From Somniosus microcephalus (taxonomy: Eukaryota): a stretch of DNA of 64,000 nt. The stretch is from NCBI GenBank assembly GCA_052327205.1, contig CM126205.1:201314001-201378000 (forward strand), written 5' to 3'. This document shows, in pieces, positions 53,780-64,000 of the stretch. The notes beneath the pieces are model-generated. The model saw nothing but the letters and a program-made list of their open reading frames with translations. It did not search any database and was not told the origin of the DNA. The stretch's first letter is position 1; each line of letters starts with the position of its first letter. The position numbers were made by a program, and so were the translations under genes.

Positions 53780-56712
53780 ACAGATAGCACTAAAGTAAGA
53801 AATAGTAAGGTATTAGGTGGGGTCAGAATAAGAGGGAACACAGGATGGTCGAAGATAGGTTTACAGTTGAATGTTTGTGAACACACTGAGTATAGTAAGC
53901 AAGGTTGGTGAGCTGCAGGCGCAAATAGCCACATGGGAATATGATGTTGTGACGATAGCAGAGACCTGGCTCAAAAAAGGGCAGGATTGGGTATTAAATA
54001 TTCCTGGATATAAGATGTTCAGGAATGAAAGGGAAGGAATGATAGGTGGTGGTGTGGCAGTATTGGTTAAGGAGAATGTTACAGTGCTGGAGAGAGAGGA
54101 TGTCCTGAAGGGGTCAAGGACCAAATCTATATGGCTAGAGTTAAGAAACAATAGAGGTGCCATTACACTACTAGGTGTATTCTATAGGCCACCAACTAGT
54201 GGGAAAAATTGGAGGAGCAAATTTGCAGAGAAATTACAGAGAGATGCAAGAACTATAGAGTAGTGATAATGGGGGACTTCAACTATCCTAATATAGACTG
54301 GGATAGTAATAGTGTAAAGGGCAGAGAGGGGAAAGAATTTCTGAAGTGTTCAGGAGAACTGTCTTGATCAGTATGTTTCCAGCCCAATGAAGCATTGCTG
54401 GATCTGGTTCTGGGGAATGAGGTAGGTCAAGTGGAGCAAGTGTCAGTAGGTGAACATTTAGGGAACAGTGATCATAGTATAAGGTTTAGATTAGCTATGG
54501 AAAAGGACAGGGAGCAATCTAGAGTCAAAATACTTAATTGGAGGAAGGTCAATTTCAGTGGGATGAGAACAGATCTGGCCTGGGTAAATTGGAATCAAAG
54601 ATTGGCAGGCTAAACTGTAGTGGAACAATGGGCTGCCTTTAAAGAGGAAATAGTTTGGGTACAGTTGAGGTACATTCTCACAAGGGGAAAGGTAGGGCAA
54701 CTAAAGTCAGAGCTCCCTGGATGACGAAAGAGAGAGAAAGATGAAGCAGAAAAAGGGGCGTATGATCGATGTCAGGTTGAGAATACATCTGAGAATCAAG
54801 TTAAATATAGAAAGTTCAGAGGAGAAGTGAAAAAGAAAATAAGAGGGGCAAAGAGAGGGTATGAGAATAGAATGGCAGCTAACATAAAGGTAATCCAAAA
54901 GTCTTCTACAGGCATATAAATAGTAAATGGGTAGTAAGAGGAGGGGTGGGGCTGATTAGGGACCCAAAAAAGAGACCTATGCATGGAGGCAGAGGGTATG
55001 GCTGAGGCACTAAATGAATACTTTGCATCTGTCTTCACCAAGGAAGAAGAAGCTGCCACCGGCATAGTGAAGGAGGAGGTAGAGGAGGTACTGGATGGGA
55101 TAAAAATTGATGAAGATGAGATACTAGAAAGGCTGGCTATACTTAAAGTAAATAAGTCAGCAGGAGTGGATGGGATGCATTCTAGGACGCCGAGGGAAGT
55201 AAAGGAAGAAATTGCGGAAGTACCGGCCATAATCTTCCAATCCTCCTTAGATACGGGGGTGGTGCCAGAGGACTGGAGAATTGCAAATGTTACACCCTTG
55301 TTCAAAAAAGGGTGTAAAGATAAACCCAGCAACTATAGGCCAGTCAGGGGAAGCTTTTAGAAACAATAATCAGGGACAAAATTAACAGCCACTTGGACAA
55401 GTGTGGATTAATTAAGGAAAGCCAGCACGGATTTGTTAAAGGCAAATCGTGTTTAACCAACTTGATCGAATTTTTTGATGAGGTAACAGAGGGGGTTGAT
55501 GAGGGCAATGCAGTTGACGTGGTGTACATGGATTTCTAAAAGGCGTTTGACGAAGTGCCACATAATAGGCTTGCCAGCAAAGTTGAAGCCCATGGAATAA
55601 AAGGGGCACTGGCAGCATGGATACAAAATTGGCTAAGTGACAGGAAACAGAGAGTAGTGGTGAACGGTTGTTTTTCGGACTGGAGGAAGGTATACAGTGC
55701 TATTCCCCAGGGGTCGGTTCTAGGACCATTGCTTTTCTTGATATATATTAATGACTTGGATGTGGGTGTACAGGGCACAATTTCAAAGTTTGCAGATGAC
55801 ACAAAACTTGAAACTATAGTGAACAGTGAGGAGGATAGTGATAGACTTCAAGAGGACATAAACAGGCTGGTGAAATGGGCAGACACGTGGCGGATGAAAT
55901 TTAACACAGAAAAATGCGAAATGATATTCTTTCTACCAAAATGTGAGGAGAAGAAATATAAACTAAAGGGTACAATCCTGAAGGGGGGTGCAAGAACAGA
56001 GAGACCTAGGGGTATATGTGCACAAATTGTTGACGGTAGCAAGGCAGGTTGAGAAAGCAGTTAAAAAAGCATACGGGATCCTGGGCTTCATGAATAGAGG
56101 TATAGAGTACAAAAGCATGGAAATTATGAGGAACCTGTATAAAACACTGGTTCGGCCTCAACTGGAGTATTGTGTCCAATTCTGGGCACTGCACATTAGG
56201 AAGGATGTGAAGGCCTTAGAGAGGGTGCAGAAAAGATTTACGAGAATGATTCCAGGGATGAGGGACTTCAGTTACTTGGATAGACTGGAGAAGCAGGGGT
56301 TGTTCTCCTTAGAGCAGAGAAGATTGAGGGGAGATTTGATAGAGGTATTCAAAATCATGAGGGCTCTGGACAGAGTAGATAGAAAGAAACTGTTCCTATT
56401 GGCAGAGGGGTCAAAAACCAGAGGTCACAGATTTAAGGTGAATGGCAAAAGAACCAAAGGCAACATAAGAAAAATCTTTTTTACGCAGTGAGTGTTTAGG
56501 ATCTGGAATGGACTGCCTGAAAGGGTGGTGGAGGCAGACTCAATCACGGCTTTCAAAAGGGAGTTGGATAAATACCTGAAGGAAAAAAAATTGCAGGACT
56601 ACGGGGAAAGGAAGGGGGGACTGGGACTAGCTGAGGTGCTCTTGCAGAGAGCCGGCATGGGCTCAACGGGCCGAATGGCCTTCTTCCGCGCTGTAACCAT
56701 TCTATGATTCTA
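53780..56712 (+). mobile_element. CR1 LINE, near-complete degraded ORF2 with tail
   Basis: APE (ETWLKKGQDW, GVFYRPP) and RT ([25 protein letters not shown]) fragments. Tail ending ttctatgattcta. Confidence 0.92.
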
Positions 56713-57049
56713 GGAGTATCTTTTTTGTGTGATGTGTTTGTATGGATATGGGAAATATGCTAACACAGCTTATGTAATAATACAGTCAAGCAGGTTAATA
56801 AAATTATCCAGAAAACTAAAGGAGCTACACAATTAAATACATTGATGGGATCCATGTTTGGCCCTTAATTCTAATAGATAGCCTGTCACTTCATAAAATT
56901 TTAAAAATAATATTCACTGAAATATCATGTTGTCTGAAATATATAACGGCCTGTGAATATCAATGCTTACATTAAAACAGCGGAAGAATTTCACACAAGC
57001 ACATTGTTTTCATATGCTAATATTGCATGTCATGATTTTAAGGACAGTG

Positions 57050-57283
57050 ATGGTGGGGAAGTCCAGAACAAGGGAGGATACCCTTAAAATCAGAGCCAGG
57101 CCATTTGGGGTGGTGTCAGGAAGCACTTCTTCACACAAAGGGTAGTGGAAATATGGAACTCTCTCTTTCCCAAAAAGCTGTTGAGGCTGGGTCAATTGAA
57201 AATTTCAAGATGGAGATTGATAGATTTTTGATAGATAACGATATTCAGGGATATGGACCCAAGGCAGGTAAATGGAGTTAAGA
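57050..57283 (+). mobile_element. CR1 3' fragment hosting the Penelope insertion (resumes at 59518-59580)
   Basis: ggggaagtccagaacaaggg...cacttcttcacacaaagggtagtgg...ggatatgg, continuing after the Penelope element as gatacagatt...gaatggtggaacaggctcgag. Confidence 0.8.
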
Positions 57284-57381
57284 CGATAGCAAAATACTGC
57301 AGATGCTGGAAATCCAAAATAACAACAGAAAAATGCTGGAAAAACTCAGCAGGCCAGGCAACATCCGTGGAGAGAAATTAG

Positions 57382-57417
57382 AGTCGACGTTTCGGGTCAA
57401 AACCCTTTATCAAGACT
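57382..57417 (-). ncRNA. Minimal type I hammerhead ribozyme motif (U3-A8 core variant), left arm
   Basis: The reverse complement reads AGUC UUGAUAA A GGGU UUUG ACCC GAAA CGUC GACU. Confidence 0.75.
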
Positions 57418-59420
57418 AAAGAGGCACAGGGAATGAAATAGATTAAGAGGCCGGGCTGGGAGAGAACAAAAGAGAAGAGACATTAAGAGGTATTCAAAAC
57501 GAGATGAGATGATGATAGGACTAGTGGAGACAAAAGACAGCTCTAGATTAGGTGTGAAATGCGCTGGCAGAATGGGAGACAGCTGCCATGTGGGAGAGAG
57601 AAAAAAAAAGGAATGGTGGTGTGGGGGGGGGCGGGAAAAACCAAAACAAAGGTGTGGATAAAAAATATAAGTAAAAATGTAATAGGGGCCGAGATTATGA
57701 TCTGAAATTGTTGAACTCGATATCGAGTCCGGAAGGCTGTAAAGTGCCTAATCGGAAGATGAGGTGCTGTTCCTCGAGTTTACGTTGAGCTTCCGTGGAA
57801 CAATGCAAGAGGCCAAGGACGGTGAGGTCCGAGGGGGAATGGAGCGGTGAATTAAAATGACAGGCGACCGGAAGCTCGGGGTCCCTACGGACTGAACGGA
57901 GGTGTTCCGCAAAGCGGTCACCCAATCTGCATTTGGTCTCCCCAATGTAGAGGAGACCGCATTGTGAGCAGCGAATACAGTATACTAGATTGCAAGAAGT
58001 ACAAGTAAATCGCTGTTTCACCTGGAAGGGGTGTTTGGGGCCCTGGACAGTGGGAAGTAGGGAGGTATAAGGGCAGGTGTTACATCTCCTGCGCTTGCAC
58101 GGGAAAGTGCCAGGGGAAGGGGTGCTGGGGGTGAAAGAGGAGTGGACTAGGGTGTCTCGGAGGGAGCGGTCCGTACGGAATGCTGAAAGGGGAGGGGAGG
58201 GGAAGATGCGTTTGGTGGTGGGATCACTTTGGAGGTAGCGGAAATGGCAGAGGATGATCCGTTGAATATGGAGGCTGGTGGGGTGAAAGGTGAGGACAAG
58301 GGGAACCCTATCGTGGTTGAGGGAGGGGCAGGGGTGAGGGCAGAAGTGCGGGAGATAGAACGGACACGGTCGAGGGCCGTGTCAACCACGGTAGAGGGGA
58401 ATCCTTGGTTGAGGAAAAAGGAAGACCTGTCGGAAGCACTGGTGTGGAAGGTGGCATCGTCGGAGCAGGTGCGGCGGAGACGGAGAAATTGGGAGAATGG
58501 AATAGAGTCCTTACAGGAGGTGGGGTGGGAGGATGTGTAGTCCAGGTAGCTGTGGGAGTCAGTGGGCTTGTAGTGAATATTGGTCAATAACCTATCCCCA
58601 GAGATGGAGACGGAGAAGTCGAGGAAGGGAAGGGAAGAGTCAGAGGTGGACCATGTGAAGGTGAGGGAAGGGTGGAAATTGGAGGCAAAGTGAATGAAAT
58701 TGTCTAGTTCAAGGCGAGAGCAGGAAACGGCACCGATACAGTCATCAATATATCGGAAAAGAGGTGAGGGACTGGAACAAAGAGTGTTCCACATATCCCT
58801 CGAAAAGGCAGGCATAGCTAGGACCCATGCGGGTACCCATAGCAACATCTTTGATTTGGAGGAAATGAGTGGAGTTAAAGGAGAAGTTGTTCAATGTGAG
58901 AACAAGTTCAGCCAGGCGGAGGAGGGTGGTGGTGGATGGGGACTGGTTGGGCCTCTGTTCAAGGAAGAAGCAGAGTGCCCTCAGGCTATCCTGGTGGGAG
59001 ATGGAGGTGTAGAGGGATTGTACGTCCATGGTGAAAAGGAAGCGGTTGGGGCCAGGAAACTGGAAACTGTTAAAGTGGCGGAGGGCGTCCAAAGAGTCGC
59101 GGATGTAGGTGGGAAGAGACTGGACAAGGGGAGAAAAGATAGAGTCGAGATAGGAAGATAAGTTCCGTGGGGCAGGAACAGGCTGAAACGATGGGTCTAC
59201 CAGGGCAGTCCTGTTTGTGGATCTTGGGAAGGAGGTTCTCTCTCCCACATGGCAGCTGTCTCCCATTCTGCCAGCGCATTTCACACCTAATCTAGAGCTG
59301 TCTTTTGTCTCCACTAGTCCTATCATCATCTCATCTCGTTTTGAATACCTCTTAATGTCTCTTCTCTTTTGTTCTCTCCCAGCCCGGCCTCTTAATCTAT
59401 TTCATTCCCTGTGCCTCTTT

Positions 59421-59456
59421 AGTCTTGATAAAGGGTTTTGACCCGAAACGTCGACT
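59421..59456 (+). ncRNA. Minimal type I hammerhead ribozyme motif (U3-A8 core variant), right arm
   Basis: agtc ttgataa a gggt tttg accc gaaa cgtc gact: stem I AGUC/GACU, stem II GGGU/ACCC, palindromic ACGU stem III, GUC cleavage triplet ending at 59452. Confidence 0.75.
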
Positions 59457-59650
59457 CTAATTTCTCTCCACGGATGTTGCCTGGCCTGCTGAGTTTTTCC
59501 AGCATTTTCTGTTGTTATAAATGGAGTTAAGATACAGATTAACGTAATCTAATTGAATGGTGGAACAGGCTCGAGAGGATGTACACTTGTTTTTATATGA
59601 TATAGATACGGGAAAGTATACAGAAATGAGTTAGCTAACTAAATACTCAC

Positions 59651-59715
59651 CGTTGTTCCAGATTTATCAGAATCACAAGATGTTCCTCTGTTGTTTAAGG
59701 GTGAAGTTCTCTTAG
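59651..59715 (-). CDS. UNC80: UNC80 coding exon (first in window): (A)KRTSPLNNRGTSCDSDKSGTT
   Basis: Acceptor ttttctttctag, donor gtgagt, 65 nt, phase 1->0. Resembles the human AKRSSPINSQSRTCES segment (from memory) and is phase-compatible with the next exon. Confidence 0.8.
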
Positions 59716-60053
59716 CTAGAAAGAAAAAGTCATAAGTCACCAGCAAACAAGAGTTTAGATTTTCCACTGTCAGCTGCCCATTTTAGCAATGTAAATTGGA
59801 CAGATGGCAGCGGAAACTGGGCAGGAATTCTGTTCTCCTGGAACTCTAGCCATTTTATGTCTCGTGTGTGGGGACTGGTGCTGTAGGAACTGCCACCTCA
59901 TAGGCGGATACTTCATTTAAGTATTCATTTGGGGTTAATGACATCCTGCACACCATTTCCTGATGTTTGGACATTCCTTTAAAATGAGCATCTAGCATTG
60001 CTAGGAAATCAGCGGCAACAATAGCCGATATAAAGGCCACAGGTAAACATATT

Positions 60054-61924
60054 GGGGTCAATTTTCTGGCAGCCGTCGGGCGGCTTTCCAGGCGGCCGAA
60101 AATCACCGAAAAAGCGGGTCGTGACCCCGCCCCCCCAGCCTGATTCCCCGCCCCGTCCGACTTTCGGACCGCCGTTTCTCTCCGACCCGCTTCAGTCCCG
60201 CCCGCCGCTGGCGGGACTGGCCGTCAGAACAGTAATGATCAATTATCACCTTGTTTAAGCCGATTTTAGGCTGCCCTTGCGACTTTCAGGGGTTCCCCAC
60301 GCAAAACACGCCTGCGGGGAACCCCGCTGATGAGACCTGGCGTGAAGCTTGCCGGCTTGCTTGCTGTCAGCTGCAGGTCAATCGGAGAAGCTGCGATTTA
60401 AAGGGACAGCACTTGTATGTTGAAGGACCTTGTTGTTGCAGGTTTGGGGCTACTTCTTCAAGGCTTAGGCAGAGCTGTGGAAGGTTGGAGCCTCGCACAC
60501 TTCTCCAATGCGATCTCCTGGGAAGCCCCTCTCGCCACCCTCACTCAGCGCTTCCTCAGCGGAGGCATCTACGAGAAGCATGGGACGCCTTTTTTTCCCC
60601 CTTCCTTTCTTGCCATTAGAGGATCTCCAGCAGAGGCGGCAGCAGCAGAACCAGGAACAGCAGGATGAGCACCACGAGCACCAGGCTGCTGCTCACTCAC
60701 CTGAAGCTGCACAGGCCAGAAGGGGCCAGCGCTTGGAGTGGCTTGAGAGCACCTTGCTGCACTTTAGGGGGCCATGGGGACCCGTTTCTGCACTGGCAGT
60801 CCAACTCAGAAGGACTTCCATGAAGCTCTGGTTTCTCTGTTCAACAGATGGCCAACGCTCCTCAAGAGATGTCATTCTCTTATGAGGACTCACCATGTTT
60901 TCCATACCCTGGCGAGTTATCTCCTCCATGGAGGTTGCTAACCTTTCCATGGTGATGCGTTCATGCACCAATGACTCCACAAAGGCTCTGCTCATGGTCA
61001 CCATGGACTCCTCCATTCGCTCCACACTTGCAGCGACCCTGGCGACAAAACCTGCCAGAGACTCCTGCATCTGTGCATGGAGATCCATTACCTCTTCTCT
61101 TGCGGATGGACCCAGAGGCAGAGGGTCGACATGCAGCGCAGCTGAGCTGGCAGAGTCCTGCGCCCTCCGACGAGGACTCTCCACTGCTGTCCCTGTCTCC
61201 AGAATCTGCTGAGGCTCACTTGTGAGCTGTGAAACACCAGGTGACAACACTACTCTATGTCCTGAAGGTCCCCCCGAGGTGTGGGTGTCTGCGCTGGTGC
61301 TGGGTTCGCTTACTTCTGCTGACGCTGCGCCCTCAGAGGTTGGAGCTTCCTCTGAGGAGTCTGGCTGCACAGCCTCTTCCTCCTCCACAGTGAGGACGGG
61401 GGCTCTGGATGGTACTGTGGGGGAGTTAAGGAAGGAGTTAGAGATGTAATGCCAAGGTTCTTCTGGTGACTCCCAGCGAGTTAGCATCTGCTGACACCTG
61501 CATCCATGCAGCATTGGTCTCAGTGGGAGGCCTCTTCCTCCCTGACCTAGGGAAGAGGACCTCCCTGTGGGCCCTAACCCCATCCAATAATGCCTGCAGT
61601 GAAGCCTCGTCGAATTTGAAGGCAGCTTGGCCTCTGCCGCTGGCAGCAGCTGGTGCAGGCTCCTCTGCCATTGTGCAAGAGTGGTTGAGAAGCCTGCAGA
61701 GGTGGAGAAGCTTGCTGGACACTTTGAAAGCACCACGAATGATGACATCATACTGTGGGGATTTCTGACTCGAATTGGACAATTAGCAAGGCTTCCCACA
61801 TGCTGGGAATTAATTGGCCACTTGAGGGAAAATTGCGTGGAGCTGGCTGACACTTTTTTATGTGTCAGAAACCCCACATTCGGGGAAACCCGACCATTTC
61901 CCACACAAGCTGAAAATCGGGGCC
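60054..61924. mobile_element. Harbinger deletion derivative with Myb/SANT + coiled-coil remnants (-) and a probable transposase N-terminus (+)
   Basis: TIRs ggggtcaattttc / gaaaatcggggcc, ATT TSD on both sides. Minus strand FKFDEASLQALLDGVRAHREVLFPRSGRKRP...AWMQVSADANSLGVTRRT; convergent plus-strand MGRLFFPLP...QRRQQQNQEQQ. Confidence 0.85.
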
Positions 61925-62604
61925 ATTGCATCTGCAATGTTTCAGTCACCTTTGACCCTTTTTGCTAATTAAAAGGTTGTGTGTTTTTGACACTTGAGTT
62001 CGCATTTGTGCCAATTGTTCCTTATTAAAACTGCAGTTTGGCTACACCTCCTTGCAATGCTGATAGAACCATGGTGTATCACAAAGGGCCACACTCCGTA
62101 CAAGCTCCTCATACAGCATCACCGCTACTTCAGCAGCCATCAAACAGAGGTCAGGTGCTGGCTGCCCCATCACTTGCTTGCAGACTTGTGCCTGCATCTT
62201 GGAATTTCTTTCCCTCCATTTTTGCCTTCTCCCTTTAACCTTGCCAAAACCTGCTAATGGGTTGAGATGCTTTGAGTCTTTCCAAAGGCTTTCAGAATTT
62301 TTATCCCCCTATTCAGACAGTCCCCTTCAATTGAACCCTTCCCTGTTAAATTTCAACTCGCACAAAATTTTCATCTCCCACCAGCTGTCCAATTCTGCAC
62401 CTGAATCTACTCAAATATGCTAATCTTGGAAAACTGGGTGCAAACAGCAAATTTCTGTGAGATTCAGGTCTAAACTGCATCCATAGCTCAAAATATAGGG
62501 TAGGATGTGAAAGAAATATCAAATTGTGCGATTATAGATCAAGCTATCACAAACAGCTGATACTAGTGCTTTTTTTTTTTAAAAAAGGCCTTAAAAATTG
62601 CACT

Positions 62605-63797
62605 TGTGGTGTATTTGGACTTTCAAAAGGCTTTCGATAAGGTCCCGCATAAGAGATTAGCATGTAAAATTAAGGCACATGGGATTGGGGGCAAGGTATT
62701 GACTTGGATAGAGAACTGGTTGGCAGACAGAAAGCAAAAAGTTGGAATAAACGGGTCTTTTTCCGAGTGGCAGGCAGTGACTAGTGGGGTACCGCAGGGA
62801 TCGGTTCTTGGACCCCAGCTATTCACAATATATATTAATGATCTAGACGAGGGAACTAGATGTAATATCTCCTAGTTTGCAGACGACACAAAGCTGGGTG
62901 GGCGTGTGTGCTGTGAGGAGGATGCCGAGAAACTCCAGTATGATTTGGACAGGTTGGGTGATTGGGCAGAAGCATGGCAGATGCAATATAACGTGGATAA
63001 ATGCGAGGTTATCCACTTTGGTGTCAAAAACAGGAAGGCAGATTATCTGAATGGCAACAAATTGGGAGAAGGGGAAGTGCAACGAGACCTGGGTGTCCTT
63101 GTGCACCAGTCGCTGAAGGTAAGCATGCAGGTGCAGCAGGCGGTTAAAGAAGGCAAATGGTATGTTGGCCTTCGTAGCGAGAGGGTTTGAGTACAGGAAC
63201 AAGGATGTCTTGCTGCAGCTGTACAGGGCCTTGGTGAGACCACATCTTGAGTATTGTGTGCAGTTTTGGTCGCCTTATCTGAGGAAGGATGTTCTTGCCA
63301 TGGAGGGAGTGCAGCGAAGATTCACCAGGTTGATACCTGGAATGGCAGGAATGACGTATGAGGAGAGATTGGGTCGATTGGGCTTATACTCGCTGGAGTT
63401 TAGCAGAATGAGAGGGGATCTCATTGAAACTTATAAAATTCTAACAAGACTAGACAGACTAGATGCAGGAAGGATGTTCCCGATGGTTGGGGAGCCCAGA
63501 ACCAGGGGTCACAGTCTAAGGATAGGGGTAAGCCATTTAGGACAGAGATGAGGAGGAATTTCTTCACCCAGAGAGTGGTGAACCTGTGGAATTCTCTACC
63601 ACGGAAGGCAGTAGAGGCCAATTCATTAAATATATTCAAGAAGGAGTTGGATATATTTCTTAAGGCTAAAGGGATCAAGGGATATGGAGAGAAGGCAGGA
63701 ACGGGGTACTGAATTTGGATGATCAGCCATGATCTCATTGAATGGCGGAGCAGGCTCAAGGGGCCGAATGGCCTGCTCCTATCTTCTATGTTTCGAT
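62605..63797 (+). mobile_element. Young 5'-truncated CR1 (same subfamily as 26483-31058 and 21835-22389)
   Basis: RT pieces 62606-62875, 62906-63190 and 63162-63551, nearly identical to 29840-31040. Possible tgcac TSD. Confidence 0.93.
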
Positions 63798-64000
63798 GCA
63801 CACAAATGCTTTATGCGTTCATATGAAATTCCTTTGTCTGTTATTTTAATGGAGGCAATAATCCTTCTATTTTAAATGGGGTCTCCCTTAAAGCAGCGGA
63901 CAAAGAAATTTTATGCAAACTTGTTAAGCCGCACAGTAGTATTTGCATCGTGTAATTTCAAGGCCAGAACGCCCCATTAACCTATACCATGTAAAGAGCT

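Follow-up and report, generated by a model that had tools for sequence, protein, structure and literature searches.

A minimal hammerhead motif with a U3–A8 core in a putative Neptune-type Penelope-like retrotransposon of Somniosus microcephalus and the probable history of its 3–8 pair

The window analysed here is a 64,000-nt stretch of Somniosus microcephalus DNA (assembly GCA_052327205.1, contig CM126205.1, forward-strand positions 201,314,001–201,378,000). It contains a Penelope-like insertion (57283–59518) that is flanked by 13-nt target-site duplications and in which a broken gene lies between two pseudo-LTRs (pLTRs) of opposite orientation, with a 273-nt inverted repeat (57330–57602/59236–59508) that is 100% complementary. 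The plus strand at 59421–59456 reads AGTC-TTGATAA-A-GGGT(TTTG)ACCC-GAAA-CG-TC-GACT, and the same letters recur on the minus strand at 57417–57382, so that the hammerhead motif which the first-pass annotation had described in both arms is present in both. The features of the insertion are as follows.

57270–57282, + strand: left copy of the target-site duplication, 13 nt (15 if extended)
57283–57697, − strand: 3′ pLTR, with a tail ∼36 nt longer; ends 103 nt past the predicted cut
57382–57417 (57417–57382), − strand: second, identical hammerhead motif, in the 3′ pLTR and sense to the reverse transcriptase (RT) gene
57698–59235, − strand: 5′-truncated gene for RT (YIDD, thumb), C-x4-C-x2-C linker and GIY-YIG
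59236–59518, + strand: inverted, 5′-truncated pLTR arm; ends 66 nt past the predicted cut
59400–59422, + strand: pyrimidine tract ending in TAG, overlapping stem I; candidate splice acceptor
59421–59456, + strand: minimal type I hammerhead motif with a U3–A8 core, in the inverted arm and antisense to the RT gene
59421–59424/59453–59456, + strand: hammerhead stem I, AGTC/GACT
59425–59431, + strand: hammerhead core TTGATAA (U3 = 59425, A8 = 59430)
59432, + strand: extra A of the hammerhead, between positions 9 and 10.1
59433–59436/59441–59444, + strand: hammerhead stem II, GGGT/ACCC, with a TTTG loop
59445–59448, + strand: hammerhead GAAA
59448–59451, + strand: palindromic ACGU of the hammerhead
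59452, + strand: position 17, a C (GTC site); predicted cut directly 3′ of it
59474–59476, + strand: ATG equivalent to the in-frame ATG that comes first in intact relatives; it lies 22 nt past the predicted cut
59519–59531, + strand: target-site duplication, right copy

The motif has the anatomy of a minimal type I hammerhead, with stems I and II arranged around N3-U-G-A-N-N8-A, GAAA and UH, and it lies within a pLTR that belongs to a Penelope-like element. Positions 15.1–16.1 form the palindrome ACGU with no stem III loop, which in sequence allows a dimer. The extra base A59432 accompanies a G59433–C59444 pair (10.1–11.1), and the extra A is present in 65 of 65 copies anchored by their open reading frame (ORF; see below). 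The 3–8 pair is of Watson–Crick type in the window copy (U3–A8) but not in its youngest relatives (U3·G8). A pattern search found the full 36-nt motif twice in the window against 0.01 matches expected by chance, and the minimum-energy fold of the 36-mer consists of stems I and II. The stability of the 36-mer was not above that of shuffled sequences (z = −0.68), an Rfam scan of window positions 55000–64000 with E up to 10 gave no match to a hammerhead family, and when two motifs were co-folded, the active dimer did not stand out in any 3–8 state. In view of the Rfam result and of a fold no better than shuffles, the case is built on motif anatomy, context and comparison. At position 17 the window copy has C (GUC, 59452) compared with U (GUU) in most of the AGTC-stem subfamily, and the copy looks transitional to later A7/C17 subfamilies.

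The gene fragment represents the last ∼525 codons of an intact relative (approximately residues 430–955) and is broken by three frame changes. It is 75–91% identical to the 955-aa protein of that relative (locus L290), which, counted from its first ATG, matches RVT_1 (E = 3.5e-4) and GIY-YIG (E = 1.3e-3); neither match reaches the Pfam curated cut-off. One ORF with RT plus a C-terminal GIY-YIG, as shown in L290, and tandem or inverted pLTRs with a 30–40 nt tail on one end are the features of endonuclease-bearing (EN+) Penelope-like elements. In the Penelope/Poseidon clade, RT and endonuclease are not joined by a zinc-finger-like linker; the C-x4-C-x2-C found here conforms instead to the C-x2-5-C-x2-C linker of Neptune/Nematis elements. 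By its sequence, the element is thus of Neptune type, not Penelope/Poseidon proper, a placement given by the linker motif only, and the earlier label 'Penelope' holds in the broad sense of a Penelope-like element and not in the narrow one. The RT, the cysteine linker, the C-terminal GIY-YIG, the inverted truncated 5′ copy and the one-end tail are all shared with the Neptune/Nematis EN+ elements described by Craig et al. (2021; PMC8557442), and the tail on one end is described both there and in PMC11167929.

Intact tandem elements carry two motifs ∼3.15 kb apart, and their first ATG lies 22 nt past the predicted cut; in the window copy only ∼15 codons remain after the equivalent ATG. Uninterrupted frames accompanied by U3·G8 motifs were observed at L290:994–3924 (−; 977 codons) and L291:1082–4135 (−; 1,018 codons). 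Since L290 is a complete tandem unit with an uninterrupted frame, the family may still be active. The window copy itself is probably inert, because the gene is no longer one continuous frame, the motifs sit on different strands and the arms of a read-through RNA would pair with one another. Its arms (57320–57602/59236–59518) show 0 mismatches in 283 nt and one T indel, and the two arms are therefore not independent evidence. In seven other U3–A8 insertions with the same loop the arms differ by 1.5–7.7%, and the window arms match although the gene has decayed. This identity could stem from conversion between the arms, from a defective template that was mobilised late, or from the assembly.

A pyrimidine tract followed by a CAG or TAG that ends inside stem I is found in every subfamily (59400–59422 in the window; L292:4078–4100), and splicing at this candidate acceptor would rewrite stem I. 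An analogous intron end is described for the Penelope element of D. virilis (PMC4209133). The element was compared with the raw reads of two RNA runs and with four contig sets. In the two RNA runs, read ends did not accumulate at the predicted cut site, ordinary RNA-seq of a repeat being a weak test of cleavage, and no splice joint at the candidate acceptor was present among the joints listed in the RNA reads. Reads came from both strands and carried both A8 and G8 (A8 in 422 of 1,532 reads of one run), a mixture that passive co-transcription of scattered copies explains. For the young element, no RNA data set was listed as carrying the sequence.

The distribution of the four 3–8 states was surveyed with one pattern, varied only at positions 3 and 8, by exact matching across the 6.45-Gb genome. 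C3–G8 gave 38,813 matches, U3·G8 15,227, U3–A8 10,362 and C3·A8 3,688, exact-match counts undercounting older copies more; reversed-pattern controls gave 0–1 matches. Subfamilies were counted as well, that of the window copy with positions 3, 7 and 8 unconstrained. Among the matches listed, 98 of 100 from the subfamily of the window copy (791 matches) are U3–A8 and the other two U3–C8, 97 of 100 from a second subfamily (552 matches) are U3–A8, and 99 of 100 from the youngest U3·G8 subfamilies (9,757 matches), which include intact frames of 950+ aa, are U3·G8. A small older U3·G8 subfamily with C7 or U7 has 370 exact matches; this early group shows its own pLTR features in most of 30 loci and has kept ancestral pLTR features. 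U3–A8 is thus an inherited subfamily trait and not decay, as the first-pass annotation had proposed for the source family, and the alternative which it had set against its own proposal, that UUGAUAA occurs in this copy only, falls away. The mismatch C3·A8 behaves differently. Its 3,688 copies have C7 in 91 of 100 among the matches listed and mostly old-family loops, and they look like products of CpG decay after insertion. A candidate small C3·A8 subfamily was rejected, with only 2 of 100 among the matches listed, which is the level of decay; C3·A8 never founds a subfamily. Hence single changes are as common as the double change in the case of U·G (15,227 against 10,362) and not in the case of C·A (3,688).

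Several further occurrences of the U3·G8 state were observed. A short U3·G8 fragment is repeated in a local tandem array (L101–L107; G000 C1, ∼5.87–5.90 Mb), with some units 1,494 nt apart. DNA contigs under two other organism labels contain young-type U3·G8 sequence (runs X12, X14 and X2), and under a more distant organism label in the same runs a loose end reads U3–A8 with C7. The 3–8 stages may be datable across species.

To order the states, copies were gathered through an ORF anchor 1.1 kb away from the motif, which gave 11,302 matches; 90 of 100 were taken among the matches listed. The motif could be located in 73 of 100 anchor-bearing elements, at the expected distance in 65, and 62 of these were labelled. 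In a tree of the 62 copies built from the ORF only, C3–G8 copies are basal (median end branches 0.026–0.043, n = 18), a U3–A8 grade that includes the window copy occupies the middle (0.022–0.032, n = 15), and a young U3·G8 clade lies at the tip inside the U3–A8 grade (bootstrap 100, median 0.0055, n = 25). A second tree was computed with the whole ribozyme removed for 100 of 106 copies, four local duplicates and two odd-length rows having been dropped. Its main steps, with SH-aLRT values of 98–100, form a ladder from C3–G8 through C3–G8 with early U3·G8, U3–A8 (C7/U7) and U3–A8 (A7) to late U3·G8; a few rows fall off the ladder and seven state changes occur overall. In AU tests on 49 well-covered rows of the 100, with groups that were defined after the first tree had been seen, a single U3–A8 clade was rejected (p = 0.002), as was a single U3·G8 clade (p = 3e-64). 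Within-group ORF distances are 4.7–5.8% for the U3–A8 groups and 3.4%, 1.0% and 0.6% for the late U3·G8 groups. The roots were placed at the midpoint or at the most divergent C3–G8 subfamily and are backed by the age estimates. On this basis the trees indicate that 3–8 went from C–G to U·G, on to U–A, the stage of the window copy, and then returned to U·G. A reading in which the abundant U3·G8 class is the intermediate was discarded, since the trees make that class derived; a separate small class takes its place. The tree and the ORF-anchored copies also show that the change of position 17 from U to C preceded the return to U·G.

Conservation of the motif was evaluated on the 65 ORF-anchored copies, a first column count having been partly fixed by the selecting pattern. 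Each of the 11 core columns reaches 95% conservation or more, compared with 49 of 277 upstream pLTR columns that reach 90% or more, and the earlier suggestion of selection on the motif is borne out in the form of purifying selection. Three pairs vary: 3–8 (UG 27, CG 19, UA 17, CA 2), 2.1–1.1 (UA 42, CG 12, UG 10, other 1) and 10.1–11.1 (GC 42, GU 13, AU 8, other 2). Save for one or two stray copies, each takes Watson–Crick or G·U forms alone, and the core is otherwise fixed. In 17 hand-picked representatives all 136 of 136 cells are paired, with double-sided changes at the three pairs; a shuffle test on this set is inflated by relatedness. At the C7pG8 site, mutation favours G8A as the first step, yet it becomes a subfamily trait only after U3. 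From these comparisons, the hammerhead fold with a pairable 3–8, rather than the Watson–Crick pair as such, is likely to be kept by selection, and an exact 3–8 pair is likely to be dispensable. The statistical weight is modest because the walk is that of one lineage: it has three steps at 3–8, four or five steps over the three pairs start from Watson–Crick, and the chance of every one of these going to G·U is ∼1/16 to 1/32 (a rough estimate that considers neutral independent transitions only). Downstream of the core, 48 of 70 columns are also invariant, in a count from pattern-selected copies in which invariance is partly built in; constraint on the core might also come from protein binding, from splicing or from the start codon nearby.

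The closest published parallels are the hammerheads of Penelope-like elements surveyed by Cervera and De la Peña (2014; PMC4209133), which are likewise of type I, lack a real stem III, have a palindromic 15.2–16.2, carry an extra base at 9/10.1 and lie in pLTRs. U3–A8 is described there in the Cercyon elements of Schistosoma mansoni, with ∼1,300 hits and the same UUGAUAA core. The supplement has S. mansoni rows UUGAUAAA and UUGAAAAA, the first of these strings being shared by the window motif, and one Saccoglossus row, UUGAAGAA, that is U3·G8 and is not discussed in the accompanying text sections available. These relatives cut weakly and as dimers (PMC4209133). In the available parts of that paper no shark is named and no subfamily history is given, whereas in the shark genome the states are time-ordered in one lineage with U3·G8 the youngest. 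U3–A8 covariation in several natural hammerheads had been reported by Perreault et al. (2011; PMC3088659), where it is cited as active in vitro; the natural core variants in the accessible portion of that report include no U3·G8 class and no evolutionary series. Counting against a 3–8 pair that passes freely through U·G, activity in a type III hammerhead was rescued only by a G3–C8 swap (PMC9901934); tolerance at 3–8 depends on context. The U3–A8 motif alone is therefore an already known variant (2011/2014), including in Penelope-like elements, as the first-pass annotation had in part stated. Within the literature covered on 3–8 variants, shark Penelope hammerheads and wobble intermediates, which lay mostly outside the subscription journals, the series C–G, U·G, U–A, U·G was not encountered, and the available parts of bioRxiv 10.64898/2026.07.22.740005, PMC6155905, PMC6257768 and PMC3884650 hold nothing on a 3–8 series; the ordered allelic series around the motif appears to be unreported.

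The Poseidon element PAc of Anolis carolinensis (Frangieh et al., 2024; PMC11167929) bears most directly on function. Its hammerhead is protein-assisted and needs 3–8 pairing to cut, its catalytic mutants were unimpaired in insertion in vitro, and no RNA-seq reads are reported to end at its cut site. PAc resembles the shark element in the position of the hammerhead at the pLTR/ORF junction, in two reverse-transcription starts that give a 30–40 nt tail and in AT-rich targets. It is C3–G8, belongs to the Penelope/Poseidon clade and has its start codon upstream of the cut site, whereas the Neptune-type element has a cysteine linker and its first ATG 22 nt downstream of the cut.

We regard the motif, with moderate confidence, as the minimal hammerhead that belongs to a Neptune-type Penelope-like retrotransposon, with U3–A8 as one inherited stage of a walk through C–G, U·G, U–A and U·G. 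Selection is likely to act on a fold that cleaves itself weakly and in which a 3–8 wobble, and not a C·A mismatch, is tolerated. By analogy with the published relatives, a tandem transcript would bring two motifs together through the self-complementary ACGU, the protein of the element would probably help the motifs to pair, and the paired motifs would cut after position 17. The element would need the fold and at most partial cleavage, leaving 3–8 free to cross and to settle on U·G. The arms of the window insertion run 66 and 103 nt beyond the predicted cut site. New insertions thus contain an intact junction, which means that the copied RNA was uncut or had been re-joined there; only partial cleavage would then be needed, and this would explain the tolerance of U·G. 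C17 is expected to cut faster than U17. We tentatively add, as a possibility that goes further than the evidence compels, that a natural hammerhead changes its 3–8 catalytic tertiary pair as helices change theirs, by way of U·G, that the lineage of this vertebrate retrotransposon with the latest activity depends on a U3·G8 core that still cuts when dimerised or protein-bound, and that weak cutting is itself selected, since reverse transcription needs an uncut junction, the 3–8 changes being balanced by the change at position 17 (U17 to C17 before the return to U·G).

A different account of the same conservation, which we consider somewhat improbable though worth serious attention, is that the fold persists because it serves the protein, the start of reverse transcription, splicing or translation as a signal for binding or folding, with cleavage dispensable at least since U3 arose and 3–8 drifting by transitions. 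The youngest intact subfamilies are U3·G8, a state expected to be weak from the mutagenesis of another hammerhead; catalytic mutations in PAc did not block insertion in vitro (PMC11167929), Naiad and most Chlamys elements thrive without hammerheads (PMC8557442), and the two RNA runs, for what so weak a test is worth, gave no read-end pile-up at the predicted cut. Pure drift is harder to reconcile with the behaviour of the C7pG8 site, at which A8 is frequent in dead copies (the 3,688 C3·A8 matches) and a subfamily trait only after U3, or with the fixation of the unpaired catalytic residues G5, A6, A9 and G12–A14 and the restriction of position 17 to C or U, as catalysis demands.

The original proposal, that the 3–8 Watson–Crick pair is essential and that U3–A8 is a compensatory double change preserving full self-cleavage, now seems to us quite unlikely. 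It accords with the fixation of U3–A8 in its subfamilies, with the natural U3–A8 covariation described as active in vitro (PMC3088659) and with the fact that no subfamily was founded by C3·A8. It is largely refuted by U3·G8, which precedes and follows U3–A8, defines both an older and the youngest subfamilies and forms the larger and younger class (15,227 against 10,362 matches); the pair has not been preserved in the sense that the proposal intended. That positions 3 and 8 changed by decay or chance in the window copy alone has almost nothing left to recommend it: the gene of this copy is broken, and decay most often produces C-to-T and G-to-A, but the 10,362 genomic U3–A8 matches and the near-fixation of U3–A8 in the window subfamily (98 of 100 among the matches listed) refute it.

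It is the lineage rather than the window copy that deserves attention. It provides an ordered natural series of the catalytic core pair of a ribozyme, in which tens of thousands of copies mark the states that are compatible with retrotransposition. The series bears on whether Penelope-like elements need hammerhead cutting, a function that it makes directly testable, and on the way in which compensatory changes pass through a pair that is tertiary and catalytic. A practical consequence is that search descriptors demanding C3–G8 or U3–A8 would miss the youngest class in this genome, with its 15,227 matches.

Other repeats surround the insertion. Inspection of ORF translations by eye indicates two decayed LINE-like elements (endonuclease/RT) on the plus strand, at 53870–56690 and 62570–63780. 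On the minus strand, a 423-codon open frame lies in a GC-rich repeat at 60693–61964; its product may be akin to the Myb/SANT-like protein of Harbinger-type DNA transposons.
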